64,000 bases of DNA from Candidatus Moraniibacteriota bacterium (GCA_013334575.1 JAAXXG010000001.1:41280-105279), one strand, 5' to 3'; counted from the stretch's first letter, positions 1-61,756 are shown. Notes: generated from the sequence alone by a model not told the origin. Program-made: numbers and translations.

Positions 1-613
1 GGGTGCCGATATCGTCGTCATTCCGAACGGGGTCGATATGCCACAGGAGCCGGCGCAACCTGAGACCGGTAAACATGTCCTGTTTATCGGGCGGACCGAG
101 GTCGATCAGAAGGGGTTGGACCTCTTGGTATCCGCGTGGTCGTCGGTGGCATCTCGCGTTTCGGTACCGCTCCTGATAGCGGGTGACGGTCAGGCGACGG
201 AATCGCGGCGACTCAAGGAAATCGTCGATGGCTCCGGCTGTGCCGATTCGATACGACTCGTCGGGCACGTTACCGGAGCGGAGAAAGACAGCCTGTTCCG
301 TGATGCCGCATTGGTCGCAATCCCGTCCCGGTTCGAGACCTTTTCCATGGTCGCGCTCGAGGCGTTCTCGTACGGGCTTCCGGTTGTCGCGTTCGACATT
401 TTGAACACGGGATGGTTTCCGGATGAGGCGGCAATTCGTATCGACCTGTTCGATACGGTGTCGTTCGGCAAGGCGATTGTATCCCTTCTTGACGATCCGG
501 ACCGACGTCGTCGCATGGGTGCGGCGGCCCGGGAGTCCGTGCGGCACTATGATTGGGACGGTATCGCCGAGCGCTATATTCGACATGCCGATCTTGTGAC
601 AGGAACGCTATGA
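1..613 (+). CDS. Glycosyltransferase family 4 (GT-B fold), C-terminal part; 5' end lies outside the window
   Basis: The frame is open from position 2 (GADIVVIPNGVD...). GT4-type motifs are present: EVDQKGLDLL, FETFSMVALEAFSYGLPVVAF. The stop overlaps the next start (ATGA). Confidence 0.8.
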   Translation, partial: GADIVVIPNGVDMPQEPAQPETGKHVLFIGRTEVDQKGLDLLVSAWSSVASRVSVPLLIAGDGQATESRRLKEIVDGSGCADSIRLVGHVTGAEKDSLFRDAALVAIPSRFETFSMVALEAFSYGLPVVAFDILNTGWFPDEAAIRIDLFDTVSFGKAIVSLLDDPDRRRRMGAAARESVRHYDWDGIAERYIRHADLVTGTL

Positions 614-1398
614 ATCTGGACAATCTCATCGAAACGATCGTCGCCGAGCGGATTCCGCTCCGATTCGTCTCTCCGCACCTCGATGACGCCGCGTTGTCGT
701 GCGGCAATCTTATGACGTACCTGCTTGGGAAGACCGATATGGAGGTCTGGACGGTCTTTACCGAGGCGTCCGCTCCTCCGTATACGCTGTCTGCAAAGGC
801 GTTCCTTTCCCAGTGCGGGATTTCGGATGCCAACCGGCTGTTTAGGGTACGGAAGGACGAGGACAAAGAGGTCCTTGACAGGTTGCGGTCCGGCTTCCGT
901 CATCTCGGTCATCCGGATGCGCTCTTTCGTCGTCGGAAGGTCGGCTTGTTCCTTCGGACGATCGCCCGACTTGTTCCGGAATTCGATCATGCGTATCCGA
1001 CCTATCGATGGCATGTCGTGACAGGCCGGGTCGCCTTATCGGAGGAGGCATTTCAAAGTCATATTCTTTCGGAAATTACGGAAGGTGTGACCGAAAGGGT
1101 TCCGATTCTCTTTTTTCCGCTCGGTTTGGGAAAGCATGTGGATCACGTACTGGTACGTGAGGTCGGCTTGCAATATTCCGGTCCTGTGGTATTCTATTCC
1201 GATTTCCCATATAGCCTGTCCGATCGTCCGGATCAGGGATTCCTGGACCGTCACGGACTCCGGAGTCACCAGTTCGGAGGGGCGGAGGGGGCCAAGCGGG
1301 AACTCATCGGTCTGTACGGCAGTCAGCACCTCTTCGAGGGCGACATCCCGGTTGTTTCCGAGGAGTATTTCTTCCGTGATGCTATCATGAAAGTATGA
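610..1398 (+). CDS. PIG-L/LmbE family N-acetylglucosaminyl deacetylase
   Basis: N-terminal SPHLDDAALSCG matches the PIG-L zinc-binding HxDD motif region. Start is ATG 610 in an ATGA overlap with the upstream stop. Confidence 0.65.
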   Translation: MNLDNLIETIVAERIPLRFVSPHLDDAALSCGNLMTYLLGKTDMEVWTVFTEASAPPYTLSAKAFLSQCGISDANRLFRVRKDEDKEVLDRLRSGFRHLGHPDALFRRRKVGLFLRTIARLVPEFDHAYPTYRWHVVTGRVALSEEAFQSHILSEITEGVTERVPILFFPLGLGKHVDHVLVREVGLQYSGPVVFYSDFPYSLSDRPDQGFLDRHGLRSHQFGGAEGAKRELIGLYGSQHLFEGDIPVVSEEYFFRDAIMKV

Positions 1399-2999
1399 AG
1401 TTCCGATTTGAAGGCCTGAGAGATATGATCCGACGAGAGGCGTTTGTTTTTGGCTGCGTCTGGTTCGTGATGATCCTTTTGCTTGTATCGGGAATACGCG
1501 GATTACCGGGAAATCCTGGAATCGATGAATTGAATACGGCTTCATGGACTGGAACGGGCCCTTTTGAATCCTCAAACGACAGGGGGCGATTCGCATTGAC
1601 GTATTCGCTTCTTGAAGACCACTCCCTGTCGTTTTCGATTCCAGTCGCGGCATTTGCCGCTCCCGATCTTGCAGTGACGGCTGACGGGCGTTATGTGTCT
1701 CTTTTTGCGCCGGGCGTATCATTTATGCTGATACCCGGGTACTACATAGGAAGACTGTTTCATTATTCTCAGGTCGGCGCGTTCGTCGTAGTGAGTCTTG
1801 TTGCCTTCGTAAATGCAGTGTTGCTGTACCTGATTGCCCGAAGAATCGGCGTTGGGAGAATCGCATCTCTAATCGGTTCGTTTGCTTTTCTGTTCGCGAC
1901 ACCGGCATTTACGTATGCCGTGTCCGTATCGCAGCATCATTTTGCGGTATTCTTCATATTTGCAAGCATATACGCGCTTCTCAAGTGGGACGATTGGAAA
2001 GCTCTCTTATTGGTGTGGTTTCTCTGTGCATGGTCCGTCGCAGTCGATAATCCGAATCTTTTCCTGCTGTTTCCGATCGGACTCTTAGCCTTGGTTAGGA
2101 TTGTTCGGACGAGGATATCGTCGGACCGTATTCGTATCACGTTGAAGCCGTTACGGGTTTTTACCATACTGATAATGATTGTCCCGCTTGTTTTTTTCGG
2201 GTGGTATAACTCGAACGCGAACGGTAGCGCCTTTCAGCTTGCTGGAACCCTTCGGCGAGCGCTGTCGGTATCGCAGTATCAGTCTGAAAGCGAACAGAGA
2301 GAGCTCGAGACGCTTGTTGCGATGCACGAAGAGGGGACCGGAGATTCCGGGACGGATTCTCCGAGTACGGTCGGATTCTTCAAGACGAGAAACCTGTACA
2401 ACGGTTTTTTCGTCCACTTCCTCAGTCCCGATCGCGGTATTTTGTATTTTACTCCGGTCGTGCTTTTCGGGATCGCCGGACTTGTCATATTGTCCAGAAA
2501 GAGAAGGGAACTCGCGAATACTTTGATTGCCGTTGTCGGCGTGAATATCTTGTTGTATTCAATGTGGGGTGATCCCTGGGGTGGATGGTCGTTCGGGTCG
2601 AGATATCTAGTGCCAACTTATGCGGTTCTTTGTCTTGCTGCAACCGTCGCTGTCGAACAATGGAGAAAGAATCGGATATTCATGCTTGTTTTCCTGTTGA
2701 TTTTTGGGTATTCATTGTGGATAAACGTACTTGGTGCGCTCGGAACCAATGCGATTCCACCACAGGCGGAAGTTCTGGCTCTCGAGCAGCTGACCGGACA
2801 TGAGGAAAAGTATACATACCAGCGGAGTTGGGATTACCTTGTCGTTAACGGCTCGAAGTCGTTGGTGTATCAGACAATTGCGAAACAGGAGATTACCGGG
2901 ATTCAATACTACCTGATTGTCGGTTCAATCGGTATGGTTGCTGCAACCTTGCTGGTCGTAGGCCTTCATTTCTCGTCACGCGCAAAAGATACCGTATGA
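1395..2999 (+). CDS. GT-C fold integral membrane glycosyltransferase (PMT/ArnT-like, GT39/GT83-type)
   Basis: 534 aa with more than 10 predicted TM helices and an acidic residue pair in the first extracytoplasmic loop (IDELN). Size and architecture match dolichyl/undecaprenyl-phosphate-sugar dependent transferases. ATGA overlap with the upstream gene. Confidence 0.55.
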   Translation: MKFRFEGLRDMIRREAFVFGCVWFVMILLLVSGIRGLPGNPGIDELNTASWTGTGPFESSNDRGRFALTYSLLEDHSLSFSIPVAAFAAPDLAVTADGRYVSLFAPGVSFMLIPGYYIGRLFHYSQVGAFVVVSLVAFVNAVLLYLIARRIGVGRIASLIGSFAFLFATPAFTYAVSVSQHHFAVFFIFASIYALLKWDDWKALLLVWFLCAWSVAVDNPNLFLLFPIGLLALVRIVRTRISSDRIRITLKPLRVFTILIMIVPLVFFGWYNSNANGSAFQLAGTLRRALSVSQYQSESEQRELETLVAMHEEGTGDSGTDSPSTVGFFKTRNLYNGFFVHFLSPDRGILYFTPVVLFGIAGLVILSRKRRELANTLIAVVGVNILLYSMWGDPWGGWSFGSRYLVPTYAVLCLAATVAVEQWRKNRIFMLVFLLIFGYSLWINVLGALGTNAIPPQAEVLALEQLTGHEEKYTYQRSWDYLVVNGSKSLVYQTIAKQEITGIQYYLIVGSIGMVAATLLVVGLHFSSRAKDTV

Positions 3000-4651
3000 G
3001 AACTCTGGATAGACATCAAAATCCCATAGAAGCGGAAATTTCGCTGGACAGGCGGAGCGCCGACCGATTCGTCAGATTCATCGATCGAAACTCGACCTTC
3101 CTTGTGACTGTCCTGCTTACCTTTGTTTCGGTATCCGCGTTCGCATATTATTACGCGAACGGCCTCGGTGTGGCGTACAACGACGCTCGGTCGCACCTCG
3201 ACATCGGCCGCCGCGTCGTCGAGGGGCTCAATCCCGGCGCCGCGCAGCTCGGATCGGTATGGCTGCCGCTCACGCACGCCCTGATGGGTCTCACCATCTG
3301 GAACGACTTCATGTGGCACTCGGGACTGGCCGGGGCGCTCTGGTCCATGATCGCGTTCGTCGGCACCGGAGTGCTGATCGACCGATACCTGAAGGAGATC
3401 GGAGTCGGCCTGCTCGGGCGCTTTACCGGTGTCGGCATCTTCGCCGCGAACCTCAATACGCTCTACCTGCAGTCGACCGCCATGACCGAACTCATGCTGC
3501 TCGGTACGATGACCGCCGGATGCTATTTCTTCCTGCTGTGGTACAAAAGACGGAAGATTCTCCATCTTGTCGCCGCGGCGTTCTTCATCGCGCTCTCGAC
3601 GCTCGTGCGGTACGACGGATGGTTCCTGCTCTTCATGGCGGCGGCGATACTCTTCCTGTCCACCTGGCGTGAGGGCGGGTACCGGAAGGCGGAGGGACTC
3701 TTCATCCTGTTCTCGACGCTCGGGGGATTCGGCGTCGCGCTCTGGGTGCTGTGGAACGCGCTTATCTTCAAGGATCCGCTTTACTTCGCGTTCGGTCCGT
3801 ATTCCGCGCATGCCCAGCAGGACCAGCTCGAGAGCGCCGGTGTCCTGCCGACCAAATGGCACTGGCTGCCGTCCATCAAGGTCTACTTTTACGCGCTCGC
3901 GTACAACTCCGGCGCGTTCACGATGATCCTCGGACTCGTCGGGCAGGTGACCATGTGGCTTGACCGGCGTCTTTCCCGGGAAGTTCGGACCGCGAGCGCG
4001 TTACTCGTCGCGCCGCTTCTCTTTAACGTGCTCGCTCTGTATCTGGGTCATTCCGTGCTCTACATCCAGGGTCTTTCCGGCGATACCTGGTTCAATGTCC
4101 GCTACGGTATCATGATGCTTCCCTCGTTCGCGATCGCGATCGGATATCTGACGGACCGACTCCGCGGTCTGCGGTTCACGCTCGTCGGACTCCTCCTGTT
4201 CACGACATTCTTCATGTTCTCGAGCGGGGATGCCGTAACCATCGACGATGCCCGCGTCGGCTCGAGTCAGAAGAACGTGAGCGAGGTGTCCGGATGGTTA
4301 CATGCCAATGCCGGACCGAAGAAGGGATTCATCCTCATCTCCGCCGCCTCTCACGACTCGGTCATCTTCTCGTCCGGTCTGCCGATGAGCCGGTTCATAC
4401 ACGAGGGCACCGGCAAATACTATGACGCGGCCATCGAAAGCCCCGATCATTGGGCTCGCTGGATCGTCGTGCGCAGCTATTCCGACGACGACTCCACCTG
4501 GCGCCAGCTCAAGGATAACGAGGGGTTCCTGGAGCGCTTTGAGAAGGTCGATTCCTATCCGTTCGCGGACATCTACGAGCTGCGACCCGAGTTCATTTCG
4601 GGCCTCGTGACGGATCAGATCTTCGCCGACAATCCGGGTAGCGAACGCTGA
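2996..4651 (+). CDS. GT-C fold membrane glycosyltransferase paralog (PMT/ArnT-like) with a soluble C-terminal domain
   Basis: 551 aa with a multi-TM N-terminal half and a soluble C-terminal ~150 aa. It is tandem to the previous GT-C gene, with an ATGA overlap. Confidence 0.5.
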   Translation: MRTLDRHQNPIEAEISLDRRSADRFVRFIDRNSTFLVTVLLTFVSVSAFAYYYANGLGVAYNDARSHLDIGRRVVEGLNPGAAQLGSVWLPLTHALMGLTIWNDFMWHSGLAGALWSMIAFVGTGVLIDRYLKEIGVGLLGRFTGVGIFAANLNTLYLQSTAMTELMLLGTMTAGCYFFLLWYKRRKILHLVAAAFFIALSTLVRYDGWFLLFMAAAILFLSTWREGGYRKAEGLFILFSTLGGFGVALWVLWNALIFKDPLYFAFGPYSAHAQQDQLESAGVLPTKWHWLPSIKVYFYALAYNSGAFTMILGLVGQVTMWLDRRLSREVRTASALLVAPLLFNVLALYLGHSVLYIQGLSGDTWFNVRYGIMMLPSFAIAIGYLTDRLRGLRFTLVGLLLFTTFFMFSSGDAVTIDDARVGSSQKNVSEVSGWLHANAGPKKGFILISAASHDSVIFSSGLPMSRFIHEGTGKYYDAAIESPDHWARWIVVRSYSDDDSTWRQLKDNEGFLERFEKVDSYPFADIYELRPEFISGLVTDQIFADNPGSER

Positions 4652-5934
4652 TGATCCGAAGGGCACTCTTTATTCTTGCTATCGGGACGCTCCCTGTCTT
4701 TCTGTGGGCGTACGCGAATCTCATTCCGGAGAAGCGCGTCTTTTATCCCGTCGAACGCGTCAGCACCTTTCCGTTTCAGTCGGTCGATACCATGAAGTAC
4801 TCGCGCGATCTCGCTCGCGAGAAGGCCGAGGACGTCTCTTTCGACGCGATTATCGAACGACAGGTCGCCGCCATCGCGGAATCCGGCGCGACACATGTCG
4901 CGGTCGCGACACCCTACGACGAAGAGTTCGCGCCCATGCTCGCGCGTTGGATCTCGTCGGCCAGGCGTCACGGGATCAAGGTGTGGTTCCGCGGGAACCT
5001 TTCCGGTTGGGAGGGGTGGTTCGGCTATCGGAAAATCACCCGTGCGCAGCATCTTTCCGGAATCGTCTCGTTCATCAATTCGCATCCCGAGTTCTTCGAG
5101 GATGGGGATGCGTTCTCGACCTGTCCCGAGTGCGAGAACGGCGGTCCGGGTGATCCGCGGCAGACGGGCGATGTCGCCGGTTTCCGGCAGTTCCTCGTTT
5201 CCGAGCATGATGCGGCAAGAGACGCGTTTCGAAAGATGGGAAAGGACGTGCGAACGGACCTGTTTTCCATGAACGGCGACGTCGCGCGTCTCGTGATGGA
5301 CAGACCGACGACCAAGGCGCTCGGTGGCACGGTGACCATCGATCACTACGTGAAGACGCCGGAATGGCTTGTCGCCGATGCGGAGGCTATCGCCAAGCAA
5401 AGCGGCGGGACCGTGGTATTCGGCGAATTCGGCGCGCCTATTCCGGACATACACGGCGAGATGACCGAGGAACAGCAGGCGCAGTGGCTCGAATCGGCGA
5501 TGCGTCTCCTCTCGGGCTCTTCCGCGGTGTCCGGTGCGAACTACTGGTCGGCGGTCGGAAGCTCGACGCAGCTTTGGGATAGCGAAGGGAATCCGTCCAA
5601 GGCGGCGAAGGTGCTCCGACAGTATTACCGTCCCCGTATCGCGCAGGGCATCGTCTCGGATGAGTTGGGAAGGGTATTGTCCGGTGTCTCCGTCACGTCC
5701 TCAAGCGGGGCGACGGCGGTGACCGATACACATGGGCACTATTCGTTCGGCGTTCCGGGAACGGAAACGGCGACGATCCGTTTTTCCCTGGACGGTTACG
5801 ACTCCCGAGAGGTCGCGTTTACCGGTGACACGCCGGAGACCGATGTCATTTTGCGGCCAATATATACGAACCCGCGCTACCGACTCCTGCGCCTGTTCGG
5901 CAGGTTCTTCGGTTTTTTGCACATGGCACAGTAA
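4651..5934 (+). CDS. Secreted/membrane-anchored protein: putative TIM-barrel glycoside hydrolase-like domain plus C-terminal carboxypeptidase-regulatory-like beta-sandwich
   Basis: N-terminal hydrophobic anchor (ALFILAIGTLPVFLWAYA). The FGEFG motif is compatible with a GH5-type nucleophile region. The C-terminal SSSGATAVTDTHGHYSFGVPGTETATIRF resembles a CarboxypepD_reg fold. TGATG overlap with the upstream gene. Confidence 0.35.
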   Translation: MIRRALFILAIGTLPVFLWAYANLIPEKRVFYPVERVSTFPFQSVDTMKYSRDLAREKAEDVSFDAIIERQVAAIAESGATHVAVATPYDEEFAPMLARWISSARRHGIKVWFRGNLSGWEGWFGYRKITRAQHLSGIVSFINSHPEFFEDGDAFSTCPECENGGPGDPRQTGDVAGFRQFLVSEHDAARDAFRKMGKDVRTDLFSMNGDVARLVMDRPTTKALGGTVTIDHYVKTPEWLVADAEAIAKQSGGTVVFGEFGAPIPDIHGEMTEEQQAQWLESAMRLLSGSSAVSGANYWSAVGSSTQLWDSEGNPSKAAKVLRQYYRPRIAQGIVSDELGRVLSGVSVTSSSGATAVTDTHGHYSFGVPGTETATIRFSLDGYDSREVAFTGDTPETDVILRPIYTNPRYRLLRLFGRFFGFLHMAQ

Positions 5935-6218
5935 TCACATCAGAGGAACCGATAGTACCGATGGATATCCGAGTGTCGAATCAGTTGGTTCGCGATGAGG
6001 CGTGCAAGGAGTCTATCTCAAAATTCGCTTCACTGTCATTCCGGAATCCGCCCGAGCATGCGCCAGGCAAGAGCCGGAATCTATTTCCTGGATCCCACCC
6101 CGGCATTCGCAGGGCAAGGGTCAACCGGCATACGCCGGTCAAAAGCCCGGGATGAAAAAACCATAGTTTTCGCAGATCGAAATATGCTCTGGTATTTTCG
6201 TATTGAAAGCGACCGGAT

Positions 6219-6247
6219 TTGACAGCTTCTCCGTACGGAGGTATCAA
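6219..6247 (+). promoter_or_regulatory. sigma70-like promoter TTGACA-17-TATCAA
   Basis: TTGACA at 6219-6224, a 17-nt spacer, then TATCAA. It lies about 300 nt upstream of the first tasA-like gene. Confidence 0.4.
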
Positions 6248-6348
6248 GGAGGTAAGAGCGGTGCGGAATCGGAGAGGAGTCAGTCGTTCGTCCGACGAAT
6301 GAACCTCGTATGACCTGCTACCACAATTTTCAGCCCGGTGCGGTACGG

Positions 6349-6410
6349 AAGGCCGACGGAAGCATGACAGCGAAGGCTGTCGCGTTTCCGTCGGTTTTTT
6401 CTTTGTCTCG
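6349..6410 (+). terminator. Intrinsic terminator (long nested hairpin plus U-tract)
   Basis: ccgacggaagc...gtttccgtcgg outer stem with a gacagc/gctgtc inner stem, followed by tttttt-cttt. Confidence 0.5.
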
Positions 6411-6518
6411 GAGAATGCTTCCGGGACGGGCGCAGAAACCGAGACGCCGCGGGAGCGAATCTCCCGGTCGATGTGGCGAGGTGGAAAGGTGAAATATGTT
6501 TTTCATAATTCAAATCCT

Positions 6519-7124
6519 ATGATGAAAATCTTGAAGAGTCTCGGGCTCATCGGGGCGGTCGTCGCGGTCGCGGGCGGCGCCACCTACGCGTACTTCAGCG
6601 ACACGGAGACGTCGTCGGGGAATACCATCGCCGCTGGAACGCTCGACCTGCAAATGAGCGGAGAAGGGACGGTGCCGTTCAGCGTGACGGACGCGTATCC
6701 GGGGATGCCGGCAGTGAAACGGCTTGTCCATGTGAAGAACGCGGGGTCGATCAATGGCCATCTGCAATTCACTGGCGCGACCGTCTCAAATGATGAAAAT
6801 GGTTTGAAGGAACCGGAAAGTTCAGACGGCGATAGCACGGACGGTGCGAGTGGAGGTGAGCTTTGTGCGAACCTCGAAGTGCAGGTCTCTTTCGTGGGTG
6901 GAGCATCTGATGTGGTGCTCTATCCGTGGGGATCGCTTGCGGCGCTCAATCCGACCGGAGATGCTCTGATGCCGGCGGCAGCCGAGCGGGATCTGAAGGT
7001 GGAGTTCCGCGTACCGGGAACGGTTGGAAATACGATTCAGAGTGATATTTGCGGGATCAATTACGGTCTCAAACTCGTCCAGGATGTGAATCAGGACGGA
7101 ACCGCCGATGAGGACGGACATTGA
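6519..7124 (+). CDS. TasA/camelysin-like secreted protein with SipW-cognate class signal peptide
   Basis: MMKILKSLGLIGAVVAVAGGATYAYFSDTETSSGNTIAAGTLDL aligns with the B. subtilis TasA N-terminus (GGGTWAAFND...ASGTLDLS). The downstream PG..K....V.N.GS region is also TasA-like. Confidence 0.7.
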   Translation: MMKILKSLGLIGAVVAVAGGATYAYFSDTETSSGNTIAAGTLDLQMSGEGTVPFSVTDAYPGMPAVKRLVHVKNAGSINGHLQFTGATVSNDENGLKEPESSDGDSTDGASGGELCANLEVQVSFVGGASDVVLYPWGSLAALNPTGDALMPAAAERDLKVEFRVPGTVGNTIQSDICGINYGLKLVQDVNQDGTADEDGH

Positions 7125-7245
7125 TCGGTAGGCTTGGTGTGCTCCCGGGGCCGATAGGAGCCCCGGGAGCGGGGTGACGGTAGACTACCGTTTGACCGTG
7201 CGACGGTAACGGGAGCATGACGGATAATCCGTGTCGACGAACGAT

Positions 7246-7947
7246 ATGATGAGGATACTGAAGAGTCTGTTCCTCATTTCGGCGGTCGTCGCGGTGGTAG
7301 GAGGGGCGACATACGCGTATTTCAGTGATACCGAAACGAGCGAAGGCAATACGGTGACGGCGGGAACCCTCGACCTCAAGGTTGGCGGCAAAGACGATCC
7401 GCTTGTCGAGAAGATCTCGGTGGGCGATATATATCCCGGAAGCGTCGTTACCAAGACGTGGAAGGTGGAGAATGCCGGGTCGGTTCCCGGCAAGGTGAAG
7501 GTGAAAATCAGGAACATAGCCGATAACGACAACGGCTGCGAGGAGCCCGAATCTCCGGGTGAGATCGCGGAATACGGCTTGGCGACCTGCGGTGCGGGCG
7601 AAGGGGAACTTTCAAGTTATCTGCGCACGCGCGTGTTTCAGAGCCATGTGAACTCGAACAATCCGGACTGGGGCATCAACGACTATCATTCGTACAATCT
7701 CGCCGGGCGGCACCCGGGCGGTTCGCCGTACGGTGGTGTGAAGTATATCGAGAACCTGTCCATGGGCGGGCAGTTAACGCTCAATCCGGGCGAGTTCCAG
7801 GTCATCAAGCTCGATATGCGTCTCGATCCGGACGTGAAGAGTCTGAGCGACTGGGGCGGCTGGCTGACTCATGATGTGAATGACAATCTTCTTCAGGGTG
7901 ATTCGACGACCTTCGATGTCGAATTCACGCTGGAACAGGTACACTGA
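7246..7947 (+). CDS. TasA/camelysin-like secreted protein paralog with SipW-cognate signal peptide
   Basis: MMRILKSLFLISAVVAVVGGATYAYFSDTETSEGNTVTAGTLDLKVGG. Tandem paralog of 6519..7124. Confidence 0.7.
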   Translation: MMRILKSLFLISAVVAVVGGATYAYFSDTETSEGNTVTAGTLDLKVGGKDDPLVEKISVGDIYPGSVVTKTWKVENAGSVPGKVKVKIRNIADNDNGCEEPESPGEIAEYGLATCGAGEGELSSYLRTRVFQSHVNSNNPDWGINDYHSYNLAGRHPGGSPYGGVKYIENLSMGGQLTLNPGEFQVIKLDMRLDPDVKSLSDWGGWLTHDVNDNLLQGDSTTFDVEFTLEQVH

Positions 7948-8039
7948 CGAAGTGGCGGAAGATCGTTCCGATCTCCTCTCCCGGCGTCGCGGCGGTGCCG
8001 GGGAGGGAGCGAGGAATATCGGAATATTACTGATAGGCA

Positions 8040-8693
8040 ATGAAACGGTTTCTCTCCATCGTGAACGGACTGGTCATGACGCTCCTCGTTTTGGTAGCGC
8101 TTCTTTCGCTTTCCTCGGCGTTCTCGGTGGGCGGGGTGCGGACCTTCTCGGTGTTGTCCGGGTCGATGGAGCCGACCATCCATACCGGAAGCGTCATCGT
8201 GACCGTACCGGCTTCGTCGTATGCAGTCGGAGACATCGTGACGCGCCGAACGGAGAACGCTTCCGTGACCGTGACGCACCGCATCGCCGAGGCATCGGAG
8301 AAGGGTGAAACGACGATGTTTCGTACGAAGGGCGATGCGAACGACATCGCGGACAGCGAGACGTTTCCGGAGGCGGATATTCTCGGCAGGGTACGCTTCT
8401 CGATCCCGTGGCTCGGCTATGTCGCGAGTTTCGCACGGACACGCGAGGGCTTCCTTCTCTTGGTCATCATCCCGGCGGTCATCGTGGTCTACGAGGAACT
8501 GCGGAAGCTGAAGGACGAGGTCGTGCGGCTTTGGCGGAAACGGCGGGAACGGAAGACCCTGTCGCGGGTCCGTATCGACGACGGGCCGAAGCCGGACCGA
8601 CCGGTCGCTCGTCCTGTTTCCGTGCCGGAAGGCAATATCGGCGAGATGCAATTCGGAGGACGGGAAGACGTGCCGAGGAAAAAGATCGTATGA
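8040..8693 (+). CDS. sipW: Signal peptidase I, SipW (archaeal/ER Sec11-type)
   Basis: N-terminal TM, then the SGSMEPT catalytic-Ser motif, a His in TVTHRIAEA, and KGDANDIADSE (GDxN box). A C-terminal TM is followed by a basic tail. Confidence 0.75.
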   Translation: MKRFLSIVNGLVMTLLVLVALLSLSSAFSVGGVRTFSVLSGSMEPTIHTGSVIVTVPASSYAVGDIVTRRTENASVTVTHRIAEASEKGETTMFRTKGDANDIADSETFPEADILGRVRFSIPWLGYVASFARTREGFLLLVIIPAVIVVYEELRKLKDEVVRLWRKRRERKTLSRVRIDDGPKPDRPVARPVSVPEGNIGEMQFGGREDVPRKKIV

Positions 8694-9739
8694 TGCTCAC
8701 GCTTCACACTGTGCGAAATTCGAAACAGGCTCTCCGGAACGGAGCGTTCCGGGCGGCGTTCGTTTCGCTGCTTGCAGTCGCAACGGGACTGTCGGGTGGC
8801 ATGTCGGGAACGAATGCCTTCTTTTCGGATACCGAGAGCGTGACCGGAAACTCCGTAGAGGCCGGTGTCTGGATTCCGACGCTCCACGCGTCGGTGTCGC
8901 CTGCGTCGCCGAACGGGCAGTATGACGCGACTCTCTACAAGACGCGTCCGTGCGTCACGCTTTCGTATGACGGTCTCTCGTCCGGGACCGCTACCATATG
9001 GTATGAATTTTCGGACGACGGAGATCCTCGGGACGGCGGGACGGTCTACGGCGGGGCCTGTATCGAGGTTCCCGACGGGGATCCGGTTCCGTTCCAGGCT
9101 GTCGCGGTGAACGTCGCGAATCCGGACTGGAGGAGCTCGGTCTTCTCGCGGGTGTTCAGGGTGGATACGGAATGTCCGGAGATCACGCTTGAGGACCCGG
9201 ATAATGGCGATACCGTTTCGGGAACCGTGAAGCTGCGCGGCACGCTTTCCGACAAGCATCCGCATCACTACTGGCTGGTCGTCGTAAGGAAATCGAACGG
9301 GGAACAGGTGGCGGGCCCGGGTGTCGTGAACGATTCGGATAGCTTTTCGGATAAGATTCTCTATGACTGGGATACGACGAAGGTCGTCGACGGGGACTAT
9401 GTCGTCAAGTTCGAGGCGCGCGACGCGGCCGGGAACAAGTGCGAACCGGGCAAGTCGGTCGATTGGAACACCGTTACCGTTCGAAATGCCGTTCCTGTCA
9501 CGGAAGCGGGAAATATGGACGCGAATCCCGGAGACGTGACGGTTTCCACGTCCGTCTCATCTCCGTCCGCATTGACGGTCGACGGAACCGGGCTGGATGG
9601 TGTTTCTGCTACGGGTGATCCGGGAACGGCGGAGGTTGTCGTGATAGAATCGGACCAGCGGCAGGTCAGCGGCGCGGAAACGGAAGAAATACGATCCGAA
9701 GGAACGGATGTTTCCGGATCGGGTGGATCCGGAGCATGA
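8690..9739 (+). CDS. Large secreted protein with SipW-cognate signal peptide (TasA-like N-terminus plus extra beta-rich domains)
   Basis: MMLTLHTV...AVATGLSGGMSGTNAFFSDTESVTGNSVEAG carries the SipW-type motif. ATGA overlap with the sipW stop. Ser/Gly/Asp-rich C-terminus. Confidence 0.6.
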   Translation: MMLTLHTVRNSKQALRNGAFRAAFVSLLAVATGLSGGMSGTNAFFSDTESVTGNSVEAGVWIPTLHASVSPASPNGQYDATLYKTRPCVTLSYDGLSSGTATIWYEFSDDGDPRDGGTVYGGACIEVPDGDPVPFQAVAVNVANPDWRSSVFSRVFRVDTECPEITLEDPDNGDTVSGTVKLRGTLSDKHPHHYWLVVVRKSNGEQVAGPGVVNDSDSFSDKILYDWDTTKVVDGDYVVKFEARDAAGNKCEPGKSVDWNTVTVRNAVPVTEAGNMDANPGDVTVSTSVSSPSALTVDGTGLDGVSATGDPGTAEVVVIESDQRQVSGAETEEIRSEGTDVSGSGGSGA

Positions 9740-9749
9740 ACGAAAAGAT

Positions 9750-10418
9750 ATGGCGTCAATGAAACGGACATTCGCACTTGCCTTCTTCACGGTCATGCTT
9801 ATGATTCCGAGCGCCGCGGTACAGGCGCGCGACGAACTCGATATCGATCCGGATCGGGGAAGGTTGTTCAACGAGCGGGATATGGCGCCGGGCGAGTCCG
9901 TATCGGCGGAAGTATCGGCTCGGAACCGTACGAAGGACAAGGCGGACCTTTTCCTTTCGGTCGACGGGCTCCAGGGCGAACGCCTGGCGAGAGTGATGCA
10001 GGTCGCTGTCATTGACCGAACGAACGGTGAGTATCTTGTCGGCGGTGAGAATGACGGCATGACGCTTGCGGATCTGAATGGTGCGCACCAGGTCTTTTTG
10101 GAACGGCTCGGGAAAAACCGTTCCGGATCGTACGAGATAAGGCTGACGTTCGATCCGAATGCCGGGAACCGGTATCAGGGAACGAAGACGAAGTTCGACT
10201 TATCTTTCAGACTTACGTCCTCGGTCGCGAAACCGGATTCCAATCCGCCGTGCCGGACCGACCGATGTCGCGATCGATGGGAACATGAGCGCGGGCGGGA
10301 CGACGACCGTAGCAATGACCGCGATTGGCGTGGTCGCTTTGTGGAAAGGTACCATCGTTTTTCGGATTCCATGTCTTGGTTTTTCGGCCGCGTATCGCAG
10401 GCTCTATCGCGAAGATAG
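9750..10418 (+). CDS. Secreted protein (Sec signal peptide, AVQA cleavage site) with a highly charged Arg/Asp-rich C-terminal tail
   Basis: MASMKRTFALAFFTVMLMIPSAAVQA. The C-terminus reads CRTDRCRDRWEHERGRDDDRSNDRDWRGRF. It is the last gene of the sipW cluster. Confidence 0.4.
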   Translation: MASMKRTFALAFFTVMLMIPSAAVQARDELDIDPDRGRLFNERDMAPGESVSAEVSARNRTKDKADLFLSVDGLQGERLARVMQVAVIDRTNGEYLVGGENDGMTLADLNGAHQVFLERLGKNRSGSYEIRLTFDPNAGNRYQGTKTKFDLSFRLTSSVAKPDSNPPCRTDRCRDRWEHERGRDDDRSNDRDWRGRFVERYHRFSDSMSWFFGRVSQALSRR

Positions 10419-10640: not shown

Positions 10641-11198
10641 ATGAGAAAACAGCGATTCGGTTTCTTTCGAGAACTTCTTGTCCATGAGCACAAGGTCGTC
10701 TTGGAGGTTCTTGCGGTCGGGGTCATGCTGACGATCGCTTTTAATGTGTTCGACTACGCCTTCGGATATCGGTATCTTGATGTAAGCAGGCAGGTCCGAT
10801 TGAATCTGGAGAGCGGGCCTTCGTCTCAGCAGCTCGGGGTTATGGAAGCTCGCTTACGTGAGTTCAACGGCAACGAGCGAAACCCGGTGTCTATCGGTAT
10901 CTATGACCATTCGGACGGGCCTCATGCGACTAAGCGGGATATCAAGGAGCGACTCGACAACCTGCGCTTTTCCGGTCCGCGGGGAAAGACGTCACTTCTC
11001 TTTGTGGTACAGGATGATTACGTCATAATCAAGGCGCTTGGAAGCCCGAGTTTGAGCCAGGAAGAAATGGATGGAATCGCCAGACTGCAGCGAAAGGTGC
11101 AGAAGGCTCTCGATAAAGCGGATTCCTCTGATTCGTTCCGCTACGGAGATCCGACGAAGGCTATCCTGGCTGCGATCCTATCCGACAATGTGAACTAG
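10641..11198 (+). CDS. Hypothetical N-terminally membrane-anchored protein
   Basis: AGGAGAA RBS 5 nt before ATG 10641. One TM (VVLEVLAVGVMLTIAFNVF). AT-richer segment. Confidence 0.4.
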   Translation: MRKQRFGFFRELLVHEHKVVLEVLAVGVMLTIAFNVFDYAFGYRYLDVSRQVRLNLESGPSSQQLGVMEARLREFNGNERNPVSIGIYDHSDGPHATKRDIKERLDNLRFSGPRGKTSLLFVVQDDYVIIKALGSPSLSQEEMDGIARLQRKVQKALDKADSSDSFRYGDPTKAILAAILSDNVN

Positions 11199-11408
11199 CC
11201 GATTTCGGTCGGTATGATACTCCCGGTATGCGAATGCGTATCGGGAGTCGTTCGTTTTCACGCGGTATTCCGGTATCCCTGACAAAGACAGGGATTCGGA
11301 ATGAGAGGAACTGATAGCGAAAGCGCAAGAACGAGTCGAGAGAATCGGAAGCCATCACGTCTTCGAAAATGAAGAAGACCCGCCTTGGTGACGAGTCTTC
11401 GGAAGAAA

Positions 11409-11970: not shown

Positions 11971-14900
11971 ATGACGCTCAGTTTGACCCGAAGGTTCCGC
12001 AGGTGGTTCCGCGTCTTCGACGCGGTCGTGATCCTGGCGATGACTTTCCAGCCGGTCGCCCCGGCGGTGATTTTCTCGCAGGAGGCTCCTGCAGCCGAAG
12101 AGAAGTCGGTTGTGGAGACACCGAAGGATACCGAAGAAGTGAAACCGGAAGAGGAGGCGAAGCAGGAAGTGAAAGCGCCGGAAGCGCCTGTGACCGAGGA
12201 GTCGGAAGTCGCTGCGGCGGTCGAACCGACCGTTTCCGTTCCGGAAGTCGCCGTTAAGACGGAGACTTTGGAAACGGTGACGGATCCGACCGATGGCCAG
12301 TCGGCCGTTTCGGTTGAGGACGGAGCGGATATGCCGACCGAGCCGACCGTGGAAGCGGCCGGAGCGGCGTTCGATGAGCGTGCTCCCGAATGGAAGAAGA
12401 ACGACGACGGCTCGCGGACGATCCGCGTCGTCGTGGGAGAGGAATATGCATATCCGGATTCGGATCTTTCGATCCGGTTCACGAAGATCGATGCCGACAA
12501 GAACGCCGGAAACCCGCGGGAGATTACCGTGAAGTCACTGAAGCTTTCCGGGCGATTGGCGGACTCTCTCCGCTCGGTGTCGGATGACGCCTACGAAATC
12601 ACGTCCAGCATGGAGGATGGCACGTTCGAATATGCGCTTTCCATGCCTATCGGGAAGGGGATCGATGAGGGATCGCTTTCCGCTGCCTATGCGGACGATG
12701 AGCATGCGCTCGAAGACGAACGCATTAAGGAAGTCGATGACGAAGACTTGACGTTTGATGACGACCGTGGGATCGCGACCGTATCGGGAATGGATCATTT
12801 CACGGTTTGGTTTCTGCGGCATGATCCGGATCCCGTGAAAGTGAACATCTGTCACGCGACCGGATCCGAGACGAATCCGTTCACGAAGAACGAGGTGAGC
12901 ATCAACTCGGTCTCGAAGTGTCGCGATGCGGCGGGGCACGATGATCATGGCGGCGATATCATTCCTCCGTACTCGTATGGATCGTGCTCGTTCCGCGGGC
13001 AGAACTGGGATACCGACGGACGGGCCATCTGGAACAACGGCTGCAAGAGGCCGCTCGGATCCGCGACGCTTTTCGTTCGTAAGGAGGTTGTCAATGACGA
13101 CGGAGGAACGCTAGTCGCTCGTGATTTCGGTCTGCGTGTGCTGGATGCTCGCGGGAACGACGTGACGGGGAGTCCTGTCGCAGGCTCGGAATCGGGTATC
13201 GCGTTCGCGCTGCCGGCCGGTTCTTACTGGATCGGAGAGCGTTCCGTCACCGGGTATGTCCTGAAGGGATTCGAAGGGGATTGCGGGGTGGATGGTTCGG
13301 TGACGCTGGTCGCCGGAGAGTCGCGAAGCTGCACCGTCGTGAACGATGATATCGCTCCGCGTCTTACCGTGGTGAAACACGTGATAAACGACAACGACGG
13401 TACGCTTTCGGCAGGAAACTTCACCATGACCGTTTCCGGTACGGGCGTTTCCGAACCGTTCTTCGCTGGAAGCGAAACGGGAACGACGGTGACGCTCCGA
13501 CCCGGATCATACGAAGTCGGAGAGATCGGCGATGCGGGATATTCCATGACCGCGACCGAGTCATGCTCGGGAACGATCGCGCTCGGCGAGCATCGTACCT
13601 GTACGTTGACAAACGACGACAAGGCTCCGGTGAACATCGTCGCGTGGAAGGTCGTCTGTGACAACGAATCCGATTTGCCGAACCGCGACGGGGGCGCGGA
13701 TATATCAGCAACCACGGCTACGGACTACGTGGCGAGTCATCCGTCCTGCCGACTCGTGTCCGGATGGGGCTTCGAATGGGGAAACGAATGGGTAAGCAAT
13801 CCCGGTGACGATTTCGTCGGACCTGCCGGAAACGGTTGGTTGACATTCGGTCCGACCGGAGAGGATGGCTCCGCATCGGTTGCCATCGAGGATTTCTCAG
13901 AACGCGGAATCTGGCTCCGTGAGATCCTGCAGGAAGGGTATCTGCCGTTCACCTATACGCTCAACGGAAATACGAACGCGAACGATGTGTCCGCGGAATT
14001 TTTCTGCGACACCGACGTCGAGAACTACGATAATCAGGAGTGGATTCCGAATCCGGTTCGCGGCGCTACGTATCATTGCGTCGCGTGGAATGTCGGATTG
14101 GGATCGATTCACGGACGCAAGTGGGAGGACCTCGACGGAAACGGAACGATGGACGAAGTCGAGAATCTTCTGGGGGGATGGACGGTTTTTCTGGATAAAG
14201 ACGGAGACGGTGACCTTGATAAGGGAGAAGAATCGACCGAGACCGCTTCCGAGGGCGATCATTTCGGTTGGTACCGGTTCGGGAATCTGCTTCCGGGTAC
14301 CTACTCGGTCTGCGAGGTTCCGCGGGAGGGTTGGGTACAAAGCTATCCCGGTACCGTTTCCGAACCCGCATGTCATTCGGTCACGGTTCCCGATTCCGGT
14401 AATCGCGAGTCGGCTGGAAATTCGGTTGACGGTTCAGCGTACGACTTCGGAAACGGAAGACTCGGAACGCTCTCGATAGAGAAATTCAACGATGCGACGT
14501 CGCCGAAGAAGCCTGGCGAGACCGTGAAATATACGCTGCGCATATCCGCGTCCGAGGGGCGCGTTCTCGGTGTCAGCGTGACCGACCTTCCGCCGTCGGT
14601 GGCGGCATATGTCGACGGTTCCTGGTCGGCCGAGTCCAGCGAGGGCTCGTCGCATATCGGCGCGCTCGCGCTTGATCACGAGTACCACTCGCCGGGCGTA
14701 TGGGCTCTCGGCGATATGCTTCCGGGCGAGGTGATCACCCTTTCCTACGACGCGCTGGTGGCGGATGGTACCGATGCGGGTCAATATCCGGACCTCGCGT
14801 ACGCGCAGGGTGTCGGTCGGAGCGGAAATCTGTATGCCATGGCCGGTATCGGTGGAAACATCGATGATTCGCGCTATGTCGGAACGGCGATCGCCGTAGC

Positions 14901-16101
14901 GGATACGGATACGGCGGATCCCGCGAAGGTGACGACCGACCATCACGAGAAGGAACAGAAGGTCGTGAAGGGGCGGGTGCTCGGCGCGACGCTTCCGGAA
15001 ACGGGATCACCCTCGTTCATCCTGGTCCTCGCTCTCCTGCTTGTCGGAATCGGCGGCGCGACGCTTGCGATCGGAGGATCTGTAAGGAGCGGGAAACTCC
15101 GCGCGTACCTGCGGCGGACGGTTCGCCGATGGGCCATCGTGCCGGTAGTTGTCTTGACTGGAGCGTCCTGGGCATGGGGAACGGTCGATGCGGGATCCAT
15201 ACCGGACCTCTATATCCGGGCGGAAAGTCCTGAGTCGGCCGCGAACGGATCCTTCCTGATGGACTATGTGACGCTCGATACGGACAAGCAGGGAGGTATC
15301 GACGTTTCGTGTCAGGTGAAGAAGCCGGGGGCGTCCGGGTTCGCGACGTTCCAGACTGCCGTGATCGACAACGAACAAGGGGGAAATTCCGGACAGTGCG
15401 AAGTGGGTCCGTCGGAGCTTGCCGACGACGGAACGTATGTCTTCCGCGTGAAGGCGGAATCTGGAAGCGAAGAAGCGTTGAGCGCGGAATATTCCGTGGC
15501 ATACGATTCGACGCTGCCGGGTAGGCCGAAATCGATCGACAAGAGCTATGTGTCCAGCTGTATTAACCGCGTGAAGCTCCGTACCGCGGACGACGGTCAG
15601 ACGACACGCGTGGAAGTGTATCGTTCGACGAGTGAGGATTTCATGGCGGACGCCTCGACCCTGGTTCATACGGCTGTCGTCGGTCCGAATGCGACGTACG
15701 AGTATGACGATGCGCGTCCGTCCGCCATCTGCGGAAACAGGACGTATTACGCGGTACGCGCGTTCGACGATGCGGGGAACGCGTCTCCGGTACGTGAGGA
15801 GGATATGACCGAGACGAACAAGACGACCGCATACGAGGATGTGACGACGGAAGGCTCGGTAACGCTGAAGCCGGGCGCCGGTACGACGGTTTCCGAAGGA
15901 ACCGGTTCTGGCGAGACGACGGTGACCGGAGAGGTTGCCGGCGAGCAGTCCGGCAGCGGGGAGGGAACGGTCGAAGGAGCGGAGACGACCGCAGGCGGTT
16001 TCCCGCGGTGGGGATGGATACTTGTCGCGCTCGCGGCGTATGCCGGGTACCGGTGGTATGCTCTCCGGAAAGAACGGAAGGCGAGAATGCCGAAGATCTA
16101 G
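11971..16101 (+). CDS. 1,376-aa cell-surface adhesin-like protein with prealbumin/Cna-B/SdrD-B-like and DUF11-like repeats, an internal LPETG sorting signal and a second C-terminal membrane anchor
   Basis: N-terminal signal/anchor. Repeated V.NDD.AP beta-sandwich modules. SdrD-B-like DLDGNGTMDE...DKDGDGDLD. LPETG at nt 14992-15006, followed by a hydrophobic stretch and RSGKLRAYLRRTVRRW, then about 360 more aa ending in a TM plus KERKARMPKI. Confidence 0.7.
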   Translation: MTLSLTRRFRRWFRVFDAVVILAMTFQPVAPAVIFSQEAPAAEEKSVVETPKDTEEVKPEEEAKQEVKAPEAPVTEESEVAAAVEPTVSVPEVAVKTETLETVTDPTDGQSAVSVEDGADMPTEPTVEAAGAAFDERAPEWKKNDDGSRTIRVVVGEEYAYPDSDLSIRFTKIDADKNAGNPREITVKSLKLSGRLADSLRSVSDDAYEITSSMEDGTFEYALSMPIGKGIDEGSLSAAYADDEHALEDERIKEVDDEDLTFDDDRGIATVSGMDHFTVWFLRHDPDPVKVNICHATGSETNPFTKNEVSINSVSKCRDAAGHDDHGGDIIPPYSYGSCSFRGQNWDTDGRAIWNNGCKRPLGSATLFVRKEVVNDDGGTLVARDFGLRVLDARGNDVTGSPVAGSESGIAFALPAGSYWIGERSVTGYVLKGFEGDCGVDGSVTLVAGESRSCTVVNDDIAPRLTVVKHVINDNDGTLSAGNFTMTVSGTGVSEPFFAGSETGTTVTLRPGSYEVGEIGDAGYSMTATESCSGTIALGEHRTCTLTNDDKAPVNIVAWKVVCDNESDLPNRDGGADISATTATDYVASHPSCRLVSGWGFEWGNEWVSNPGDDFVGPAGNGWLTFGPTGEDGSASVAIEDFSERGIWLREILQEGYLPFTYTLNGNTNANDVSAEFFCDTDVENYDNQEWIPNPVRGATYHCVAWNVGLGSIHGRKWEDLDGNGTMDEVENLLGGWTVFLDKDGDGDLDKGEESTETASEGDHFGWYRFGNLLPGTYSVCEVPREGWVQSYPGTVSEPACHSVTVPDSGNRESAGNSVDGSAYDFGNGRLGTLSIEKFNDATSPKKPGETVKYTLRISASEGRVLGVSVTDLPPSVAAYVDGSWSAESSEGSSHIGALALDHEYHSPGVWALGDMLPGEVITLSYDALVADGTDAGQYPDLAYAQGVGRSGNLYAMAGIGGNIDDSRYVGTAIAVADTDTADPAKVTTDHHEKEQKVVKGRVLGATLPETGSPSFILVLALLLVGIGGATLAIGGSVRSGKLRAYLRRTVRRWAIVPVVVLTGASWAWGTVDAGSIPDLYIRAESPESAANGSFLMDYVTLDTDKQGGIDVSCQVKKPGASGFATFQTAVIDNEQGGNSGQCEVGPSELADDGTYVFRVKAESGSEEALSAEYSVAYDSTLPGRPKSIDKSYVSSCINRVKLRTADDGQTTRVEVYRSTSEDFMADASTLVHTAVVGPNATYEYDDARPSAICGNRTYYAVRAFDDAGNASPVREEDMTETNKTTAYEDVTTEGSVTLKPGAGTTVSEGTGSGETTVTGEVAGEQSGSGEGTVEGAETTAGGFPRWGWILVALAAYAGYRWYALRKERKARMPKI

Positions 16102-21066: not shown

Positions 21067-21103
21067 TTTCGGCGGCTTCGTTTCTGTGGGTCGTGCAGGG
21101 CTC
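21067..21103. repeat. 37-bp direct repeat, copy B (overlaps the 3' end of the intact tRNA-Lys)
   Basis: Identical to 20889..20925. Confidence 0.8.
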
Positions 21104-21159
21104 GAACCTGCGACCGTTGGCTTAAAAGGCCACTGCTCTACCAGCTGAGCTAACGACCC
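21087..21159 (-). tRNA. tRNA-Lys (anticodon TTT)
   Basis: Reverse complement is GGGTCGTTAGCTCAGCTGGTAGAGCAGTGGCCTTTTAAGCCAACGGTCGCAGGTTCGAGCCCTGCACGACCCA. All four stems pair. Confidence 0.9.
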
Positions 21160-21321
21160 GGAATATGCCGATCCCGATCTTTCATTTTATTTCCGGTGCC
21201 ATTGTCGTCTAGGGCTCGGTCACGGATATCTTTCACGCCGTCGCATGAAAGATTCCTCGACCCCGGCTCGCTGTCCGGTCTGCTGACCAAACGACGCTCC
21301 GCCTTTCGAATCCTGACGGAT

Positions 21322-21379
21322 TCGAACCTGCGACCGTTGGCTTAAAAGGCCACTGCTCTGCCAGCTGAGCCAACGACCC
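21322..21379 (-). pseudogene. Truncated tRNA-Lys: 5' fragment covering positions 1-58, with the 3' T-stem/acceptor replaced
   Basis: 58 nt match the intact gene apart from two D-arm substitutions. The 3' T-stem and acceptor cannot pair (CCGTC / AGGATTC). The fragment is followed by an 8-bp perfect hairpin, tcgaatcc-tgac-ggattcga. Confidence 0.7.
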
Positions 21380-21499
21380 GGAAACATGGCAAGTATATAC
21401 TTGCTCTTACAAGGCGTCAATCAGTCGCTTTTCGGGCATCGGTCCTTCTGATATACTGATTCCGTGCCGGAAACGGCCGAAAATAACCATCGGACCAAT

Positions 21500-22618: not shown

Positions 22619-22645
22619 CGTATTAAGCAGGGAAATCGAAGGCAT

Positions 22646-23209: not shown

Positions 23210-23227
23210 TAACGTAACCGCACGACC

Positions 23228-61732: not shown

Positions 61733-61756
61733 AAGGTTCGTTCTGGAGAGGAAGGA

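Follow-up and report, generated by a model that had tools for sequence, protein, structure and literature searches.

A candidate TasA-type fibre operon with strand-only and groove-only partners in a Candidatus Moranbacteria genome

Introduction

How could a bacterium of the Candidate Phyla Radiation (CPR) build a fibre on its surface, and which proteins would stand at the two ends of that fibre? Bacteria of this group, the Patescibacteria, are tiny and mostly uncultured; they are believed to live on the surface of other cells, by means that are largely unexplained. The question is raised here by five consecutive genes at positions 6519-10418 of a 64,000-nucleotide stretch from a Candidatus Moraniibacteriota bacterium (GCA_013334575.1 JAAXXG010000001.1:41280-105279), which we refer to as the window. 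The five genes encode two TasA-like proteins (A and B), a SipW-like signal peptidase and two further secreted proteins (C and D). An earlier note, made from the sequence alone, had seen in them a surface fibre or matrix assembly system and had placed a giant LPXTG protein directly after it; all the open reading frames (ORFs) that it named were found. Overall, we consider it likely that the genes form an operon for a fibre of the TasA superfamily, which would assemble outside the cell by donor-strand complementation, with A and B as subunits, C as initiator or tip and D as acceptor at the cell end.

The donor strand of TasA consists of residues 28-38, which follow immediately on the SipW site; it is inserted into subunit n+1, and the N-terminus of TapA mimics it (PMC9674648). 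For AbpX, donor strands have been described that are aromatic at +2 and acidic at +4 (preprint 10.64898/2026.01.04.697558). As for the group studied here, a 2022 paper stated that homologues with PF12389 are readily found in Patescibacteria (PMC9245690).

Results

A and B resemble TasA across the mature protein

The genes of the operon, with protein lengths in amino acids (aa), are the following.

6519-7124, plus strand: protein A, putative fibre subunit of the TasA/camelysin family, 201 aa; SipW-type signal peptide and donor-strand motif YFSDTETS...AGTLDL
7246-7947, plus strand: protein B, putative fibre subunit of the TasA/camelysin family, 233 aa; SipW-type signal peptide and donor strand
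8040-8693, plus strand: SipW-like signal peptidase I of the endoplasmic reticulum (ER)/archaeal type, 217 aa, assigned by TIGR02228, motifs and transmembrane segments
8690-9739, plus strand: protein C, 349 aa; SipW-type signal peptide and donor-strand motif FFSDTESVTGNSVEAG, two immunoglobulin (Ig)-like domains, acidic low-complexity tail
9750-10418, plus strand: protein D, 222 aa; ordinary signal peptide with an AXA site between AVQA and RDEL, predicted TasA-fold jelly roll, R/D-rich tail with the motif PPCRTDRCRDRWEHER

The start of A was set at 6519, and not at the first ATG of the ORF list (6471), because its homologues begin with MKKIL or MMKIL. Both A and B scored above the cut-off of TIGR04088, the model of the SipW-cognate signal peptide (40.2 bits, E 2.5e-10, for A; 40.6 bits, E 1.9e-10, for B; cut-off 19 bits), and above the gathering cut-off of PF12389 (40.5 and 49.1 bits; cut-off 22.5 bits), which bears out the family assignment made in the earlier note. 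The two proteins are 50% identical across their N-terminal 131 residues, and both are acidic in the mature form (isoelectric point, pI, 4.1 for A and 4.5 for B). Nearly all of the 62 homologues of B that we collected carry PF12389.

Comparison with the solved TasA structure 5OF1, a check that the note had suggested, extended the likeness: a TasA-like jelly roll runs across the whole mature protein. The profile of a family alignment that includes A (alignment A1) aligned end to end with TasA 5OF1 and 8AUR (E ~1.5e-7; profile 32-199 against TasA 5-203) and also matched AbpX weakly (E 0.007). For an AlphaFold (AF2) model of B, with a predicted local distance difference test score (pLDDT) of 79.5, the top two Foldseek matches were the TasA fibre 8AUR (8aur_A, E 1.3e-5) and the TasA monomer 5OF1 (5of1_B, E 1.3e-3), and there was no further match at E <= 0.001. 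Alignment A1 conserves FSDTE..S..N...AGTLDLK, PG, N.GS..G, EPE, GEL and a C-terminal DN..QGDS..FD..F.L.Q. Conservation is strongest in the donor strand and the last beta-strands, and no catalytic site stands out. Together, the profiles and the model indicate that A and B are TasA-fold subunits.

C has the donor strand and D the jelly roll

A donor strand lies immediately C-terminal to the signal-peptide cleavage site in A, B and C (YFSDTETS or FFSDTESV) and is missing in D. Its equivalent in A and B is YFSDTETSxGN, in which the aromatic +2 and acidic +4 positions appear as Y-F-S-D. According to a six-frame motif scan of the 64-kb window, the signal peptide with the AGTLDL/AGVWIP motif is confined to the genes of A, B and C; neither silent cassettes nor additional copies of A or B were found elsewhere in the window.

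The earlier note had counted C as a third TasA/camelysin-like substrate. C does carry the SipW-cognate signal peptide (TIGR04088, 27.7 bits, E 2.1e-6), but its likeness to TasA, which in A and B holds throughout, is restricted to this peptide and the donor strand. When C was aligned to the TasA family with hhalign, residues 21-73 alone matched (93% probability), and these comprise the signal peptide and FFSDTESVTGNSVEAG; neither C nor D matched PF12389. Beyond the donor strand, C has two conserved beta-rich, Ig-like domains followed by a variable acidic tail. Some of its 23 homologues have LTD or Big_7 domains. Searched against all chain sequences of the PDB (E <= 1), the C-family profile matched the BIg domains of SiiE alone, and weakly (2yn3, E 0.011); no TapA entry was among these matches, and homology to the central domain of TapA was not seen. 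C is TapA-like by the role that we propose for it from its architecture, as fibre initiator or tip, and not by sequence.

As the note had observed, a fourth secreted protein with an R/D-rich tail completes the set. D has a signal peptide, and its tail is basic (pI 10.0, 26% K+R, 19% D+E). The signal peptide of D did not match TIGR04088 and has an ordinary AXA site instead. An alignment of its small family (A2) matched the TasA family in hhalign (97% probability, E 1.1e-10), and the match runs from the AGTLDL position, which corresponds to the mature N-terminus of D, through the final N.YQG..FDL.F.L strand. The donor strand is therefore missing from D, which would be able to accept a strand but not to donate one. 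Judged by this alignment, D is a divergent third TasA-fold protein of the operon, and it is probably an acceptor-only subunit at the cell end.

The gene order recurs in divergent loci

We compared the window with L002 (from a metagenome of the Joint Genome Institute, JGI), L003 (from a Moraniibacteriota genome), L004 and L005 (more distant CPR-like contigs) and L007. The window, L002 and L003 all have A, B, SipW, C, D and the giant adhesin in this order. An order of one or more TasA genes, SipW, a donor-strand-only protein and a D-like protein is found in the window and in L002, L003, L004 and L005; L007 has the first three parts of the module and no D-like match. A TasA-like pattern from alignment A5 recovered 26 metagenome loci of 8 kb or more; 14 of them have the module order, and several others end too early to judge. 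The recurrent composition is one to four TasA genes, SipW, a donor-strand-only protein and a D-like protein, which closes the module. D combines all the marks of this closing position: a signal peptide, a TasA-fold domain without a donor strand, and a gene encoded last in the TasA-SipW module.

The A-like gene of L002 is split by an AT-rich insert of ~100 nucleotides (nt) at 5662-5762, which leaves the last beta-strand in a separate ORF of 45 aa. The split could reflect pseudogene formation, a small insertion or an artefact of assembly.

D-like proteins mostly carry a membrane anchor

A full HMMER scan of 1.84 billion representatives returned 846 D-like clusters, with the match always within the N-terminal ~170 residues of proteins of 200-500 aa. 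The D-like relatives of L004 and L005, the two that were scanned, had no match in Pfam. By these profile searches, D-like proteins are a large family without a Pfam model.

We retrieved 40 D-like relatives. Each carries a signal peptide and lacks the donor motif. By a simple hydropathy rule, 34 of them end in transmembrane helices; one of the 40 (P0129) ends in LAPTG and a transmembrane segment instead. All complete D-like ORFs among 18 from the metagenome loci likewise have a C-terminal anchor of the membrane or sortase type. The D proteins of the window, L002 and L003 are exceptional in this respect, with a charged tail containing the conserved PPCRTDRCRDRWEHER in place of the transmembrane part. 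Searching JGI metagenome contigs for the pattern of the D alignment gave no match, and a scan of GTDB genomes for the D type returned one Moraniibacteriota genome; the Moranbacteria-type D with a charged tail therefore appears to be narrowly distributed.

Two regularities were seen in the membrane region of the relatives. A CxxWPxWxW motif opens it in 16 of the 40 (P0092-P0131), and many relatives seem, by eye, to have a second Cys-containing transmembrane segment. The CxxWPxWxW region may be a conserved membrane domain.

A proposed strand-exchange fibre and its alternatives

In the mechanism that we propose, Sec would export A, B and C, and the SipW-type peptidase would cut after the conserved G-A-T-Y-A or G-T-N-A. 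Cleavage would free an N-terminal strand, YFSDTETS.GN.., with its aromatic residue at +2 and its acidic residue at +4. The fibre would grow as each A or B placed its strand in the jelly roll of the subunit that follows. C, with a strand and no jelly roll, could only donate; it would start the fibre or cap its far end and display its Ig-like domains and acidic tail, in a role like that of TapA, AbpB or TafC. D, with a jelly roll and no strand, could only accept, and would take the strand of the last, cell-proximal subunit. The C-terminal transmembrane helices of almost all relatives would hold D in the membrane as a base anchor or assembly platform, and in the clade of the window the conserved, charged, Cys-bearing tail would have replaced this part. 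Our main argument for a fibre built by strand exchange is that the complementarity of strand and groove among the four proteins is kept across many loci. We infer the polarity of the fibre from the wider family, where the anchors sit on D-like and not on C-like proteins.

Several observations weigh against this reading. PF12389 aligns with no more than the N-terminal ~80 residues of either A or B, and the TM-score of the B model against TasA is modest (0.41). The AlphaFold model of D is only moderate (pLDDT 66.8), and its Foldseek hits in the PDB were weak, with none at E <= 0.001. The D of the window has no hydrophobic segment past its signal peptide, that is, no C-terminal anchor of the kind seen in its relatives. 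The interrupted A-like gene of L002 bears on which of A and B would be the major subunit. Finally, neither of the two hairpins described below (7141-7170 and 7973-8009) has a T-run, and the 101-nt stretch around the second is, as a whole, not significant against shuffles (z = -0.79).

Among the other readings, the one that fares best concerns the part played by D, and we consider it unlikely. D might act near the membrane as a chaperone or platform, holding the strand of the newest subunit for a time in the manner of an usher, and in the clade without a transmembrane segment it might be a released terminator that limits fibre length. An acceptor-only architecture would suit a chaperone equally well, the D of the window lacks a transmembrane segment, and TapA has been recast as a strand-complementing chaperone (PMC10151520). 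However, the relatives of D have permanent transmembrane or sortase-type anchors, often with long spacers, as would be expected of a base piece, and each operon has a single D, encoded last in the module.

A reversed polarity is improbable in our judgement. C would then be the anchor next to the cell wall, following the classical view of TapA, and D would cap the distal end. TapA has long been described as an anchoring protein, the long acidic tail of C could bind the wall, and the missing transmembrane segment of the window D would agree with a distal position. The distribution of anchors in the wider family speaks against this arrangement: transmembrane or LAPTG anchors are found on D-like proteins, whereas C-like proteins bear adhesin-type domains (LTD, Big_7) and no anchor.

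We regard it as quite improbable that the locus encodes SipW-dependent secreted or surface proteins that remain monomeric or form an amorphous matrix, with C and D as unrelated proteins sharing the operon. Soluble monomeric TasA does exist, and Foldseek found only weak fold similarity for D. Nevertheless, the way in which strand and groove are shared out (both in A and B, the strand alone in C, the groove alone in D) is hard to account for without strand exchange, and this complementary pattern is kept in the same gene order over many divergent loci.

Lastly, it is very improbable that A and B are secreted metalloproteases of the camelysin type (M73) and not structural subunits: the matched Pfam family is named Peptidase_M73, camelysin, and one distant homologue is annotated as 'M73 family metallopeptidase', but we reject this reading because the sequences of A and B contain neither HExxH nor another metal-site motif, and it is further opposed by the solved homologue TasA, a jelly-roll fibre subunit, and by the conservation of strands in place of a catalytic site.

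The signal peptidase is SipW-like

The earlier note had described a Sec11/SipW-type peptidase between the substrates, with an extra C-terminal extension of ~60 aa. Its type and boxes stand. The protein scored 114.5 bits against TIGR02228 (cut-off 51.85) and only 19 bits against TIGR02227, the bacterial P-type model (cut-off 47). The boxes SGSMEP (Ser42), THR (His80) and GDAND (from residue 98) are flanked by transmembrane segments at 4-22 and ~136-154, and we take the catalytic residues to be Ser/His, and not Ser/Lys, as in B. subtilis SipW. Against NF046067, the equivalog model of Bacillus SipW, it reached 119.9 bits, below the cut-off of 190; we therefore call it SipW-like and not a SipW orthologue or equivalog. 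A basic cytoplasmic tail of ~63 aa follows the second transmembrane segment. Relative to the Bacillus SipW model (query 5-172 on profile 5-180 of 189), the extra part amounts to ~36-45 residues and not ~60. From its co-encoding with proteins that carry TIGR04088 signal peptides, we infer that the peptidase cleaves these neighbouring substrates.

The C-terminus of the peptidase ends in an R-K-K-I-V-like motif in four loci (window, L002, L003 and L007). In the window, the corresponding codons (8672-8693) contain a purine-rich stretch resembling a Shine-Dalgarno (SD) sequence and the ATGA stop/start overlap, so that the conservation of the motif may reflect translational coupling and not protein function.

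Hairpins and gene overlaps suggest unequal output

Three elements in the DNA bear on expression of the operon.

7141-7170, plus strand: GC-rich hairpin between A and B with an 11-bp perfect stem, an 8-nt loop and no T-run; arms GCTCCCGGGGC and GCCCCGGGAGC
7973-8009, plus strand: second GC-rich hairpin, after B and before the peptidase gene, no T-run
11219-11258, plus strand: canonical intrinsic-terminator-like site, a 13-bp stem followed by a T-run, closing the A-to-E transcription unit

The perfect stem between A and B, to which the note had drawn attention, is present and is kept in L002 with one G-U-compatible change. The A-B intergenic region of 136 nt folds better than all of 200 shuffles (200/200, z = -3.45). 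Rfam returned no RNA family for this element, either at the gathering threshold in the window or at E <= 1 in 5900-8100. Because it has no T-run, and was thus absent from a terminator scan that requires one, the hairpin is not a canonical intrinsic terminator. L003 has an element like the second hairpin behind a TasA-like gene (L003 7071-7125, 83.6% nucleotide match). The sole canonical terminator is the one at 11219-11258, past ORF E. At 8690-8693, ATGA joins the stop of the peptidase to the start of C and is preceded by GAGGAAAAAG, and a gap of 10 nt separates the stop of C from the start of D. A promoter scan was uninformative (7 sites against 3.7 +/- 2.3 expected). The hairpins after A and B, together with the overlapping or near-adjacent codons of SipW, C and D, suggest a high output of subunits and a low output of accessory proteins, in line with the attenuation proposed in the earlier note.

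The nucleotide identity between the window and L002 is unevenly distributed. Across window 7119-7400, which takes in the A-B intergenic region and codons 1-52 of B, identity to L002 5895-6176 is 93.6%, and within it 7119-7260 reaches 96%. In the SipW-C-D block identity is 79%, and beyond codon 52 B cannot be aligned as DNA. This pattern suggests either a pilin-like mosaic, in which the 5' end is conserved and the body varies, or a constraint acting on the RNA.

A giant adhesin adjoins the operon

Two further genes follow D.

10641-11198, plus strand: ORF E, 185-212 aa, one transmembrane segment; the final ORF ahead of the terminator
11971-16101, plus strand: giant surface adhesin, 1376 aa, with SpaA_2, SdrD_B and DUF11-type repeats

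ORF E had no family match in the hidden Markov model (HMM) scans and no counterpart in L002 or L003. Its membership of the system is doubtful for lack of this conservation, and we left it out.

In the earlier note, the giant LPXTG protein followed directly. Its start at 11971 lies beyond ORF E and the terminator at 11219-11258, which ends the A-to-E unit. The giant adhesin is a separate transcription unit and a conserved neighbour, syntenic with the fibre operon in L002, L003 and L007.

The description as an LPXTG protein also holds in part. The sorting signal, LPETG-SPSFILVLALLLVGIGGATLAIGG-SVRSGKLRAYLRRTVRR, has the motif, a hydrophobic segment and basic residues, but it is internal and not at the extreme C-terminus. 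LPETG occupies residues 1008-1012 of 1376 (nt 14992-15006), and 364 residues follow the motif in the window, 370 in L002 and at least 296 in L007. After LPETG come a transmembrane segment, a basic loop, a signal-peptide-like second transmembrane segment, a conserved module of ~330 aa and a terminal transmembrane segment with a basic tail. The same in-frame, mid-protein arrangement is found in L002 (11288-16603) and L007 (16090-21002), and in L003 the sequence after LPETG runs on to the end of the locus. The module after the motif is 45% identical to that of the window in L002 and 31% in L007. The layout of the giant protein suggests a sortase substrate fused to a second membrane protein; we found no published description of such a fusion, although no wide search was made. 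The 64-kb window contains no credible ORF with TLxTC, and no sortase Pfam match was obtained among the ORFs scanned.

Viewed by itself, the ~330-aa module consists of two beta-rich domains with Cys pairs, an acidic linker, a transmembrane segment and a basic tail.

Source organism and genomic surroundings

The earlier note had suspected a candidate-phylum organism, and this was right. B is identical to an HGB18_00250-tagged protein, encoded on a contig of 274,643 bp, from a metagenome-assembled genome (MAG) of a Candidatus Moranbacteria bacterium, a member of the Patescibacteria/Parcubacteria group in the phylum Candidatus Moraniibacteriota. A spore-coat reading was rejected because the host belongs to the CPR, whose members are not known to sporulate. 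The G+C content of the window is 55-62%. Otherwise it contains genes for housekeeping and the cell envelope, namely SerRS, RRF, RseP, TrmD, FtsW, MurG/C/B, SecA, an L,D-transpeptidase and many glycosyltransferases.

The region immediately upstream of the operon (38-5934) encodes a GT4 glycosyltransferase, a PIG-L-type deacetylase, a PMT-like membrane glycosyltransferase, after it a second large membrane protein of no assigned family, and a CarboxypepD_reg-domain protein. In L004 (5984-8694), PMT_2 and GtrA-GT2 genes stand immediately upstream of the TasA module. The glycosyltransferase genes upstream of both modules are a hint at glycosylation of the fibre proteins.

Three other features of the window are recorded here. 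At 58451-62908 (minus strand), this CPR genome encodes an AcrB-type RND transporter (1093 aa) and an HlyD-like membrane-fusion protein; a single membrane is usually assumed for CPR bacteria. Two tRNA-Lys(UUU) genes lie 150 nt apart at 21086-21380 (minus strand), with Rfam scores of 70 and 41 bits, the second being far lower. Long antisense ORFs of up to 1047 aa overlie real genes at 21557-24283 (minus strand), 59360-62503 (plus strand) and 7893-8651 (minus strand). The first two had no Pfam match, and all are the usual artefact of DNA with high G+C.

Discussion

The TasA-type operon is a concrete candidate for the means by which CPR bacteria attach, with a predicted strand-only tip, a predicted groove-only base and an adjoining giant adhesin. 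For TasA-superfamily fibres in general, the complementarity of strand and groove may offer a genetic logic for polarity and anchoring, which have been debated for TapA in Bacillus. The D-like family, with its hundreds of clusters, could also be annotated in many genomes. Since TasA homologues in Patescibacteria have already been published, the gain is incremental; the groove-only D family and its variant without transmembrane helices are, in our view, a useful refinement. Our searches of the literature on TasA and CPR, and on sortase or LPXTG and Patescibacteria, gave nothing specific beyond one sentence of the 2022 PNAS paper, and no paper describing this fibre system in CPR was found. A bolder possibility, to which we give little credence, is that Patescibacteria possess a complete, chaperone-free and polar donor-strand pilus of four complementary parts, namely subunits with strand and groove, a strand-only tip, a groove-only base and a dedicated peptidase, with the D-like proteins as a large and hitherto unnamed family of base anchors. 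The D of the window clade would then be tied by its charged tail, perhaps to the giant adhesin, and the whole would be one host-attachment organelle of an episymbiont.

One of the closest known systems is the tapA-sipW-tasA operon of B. subtilis (5OF1, 8AUR). Both encode a dedicated ER-type signal peptidase with its predicted substrates, TasA-fold subunits with an N-terminal donor strand at the SipW site, and an accessory protein with a donor-strand-like N-terminus on a different body. The order differs, however, with the subunits here preceding the peptidase and the accessory proteins. Our locus encodes a pair of subunit paralogues, its protein C shows no sequence similarity to the TapA domain that we could detect, its peptidase falls below the SipW equivalog cut-off (119.9 against 190), and the acceptor-only TasA paralogue D is absent in Bacillus. 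The host, moreover, is a non-sporulating CPR bacterium. The sipW-tasA-calY locus of B. cereus shares with ours two TasA paralogues beside sipW and the lack of a TapA orthologue. For that locus no donor-only or acceptor-only partner comparable to C or D is described, and B. cereus uses another factor, BC1280/CapP.

The AbpX loci and those of the archaeal bundling pilus (AbpA-AbpB), which belong to the TasA superfamily, encode chaperone-free donor-strand polymers with a co-encoded peptidase of the TIGR02228 type, and a polymer of this kind is what we propose here. AbpX also has acidic subunits (pI about 4) and the donor strand with aromatic +2 and acidic +4. Minor subunits and tip proteins are encoded as well, and the bacterial AbpX loci contain genes for tip, minor-subunit and SLH or LPXTG anchor proteins (preprint 10.64898/2026.01.04.697558). 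The peptidase associated with AbpX has ten transmembrane helices, whereas the one described here has two, and the preprint names Bacillota and Chloroflexota and does not mention Patescibacteria.

The loci of haloarchaeal Tat-fimbriae (Tafi) have an equivalent parts list: the strand-donating major and minor pilins TafA and TafE, the tip TafC, the peptidase TafD and the anchor TafF, which has a jelly-roll-like domain and a membrane helix (PMC12337348). Unlike the present system, they are archaeal and mostly exported by Tat, and no DUF5305/TafG partner was seen in the window locus. The helix of TafF precedes its jelly-roll-like domain, whereas in D-like proteins the transmembrane helices follow the jelly roll. 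By analogy with this anchor, the D-like family may be a functional counterpart of TafF.

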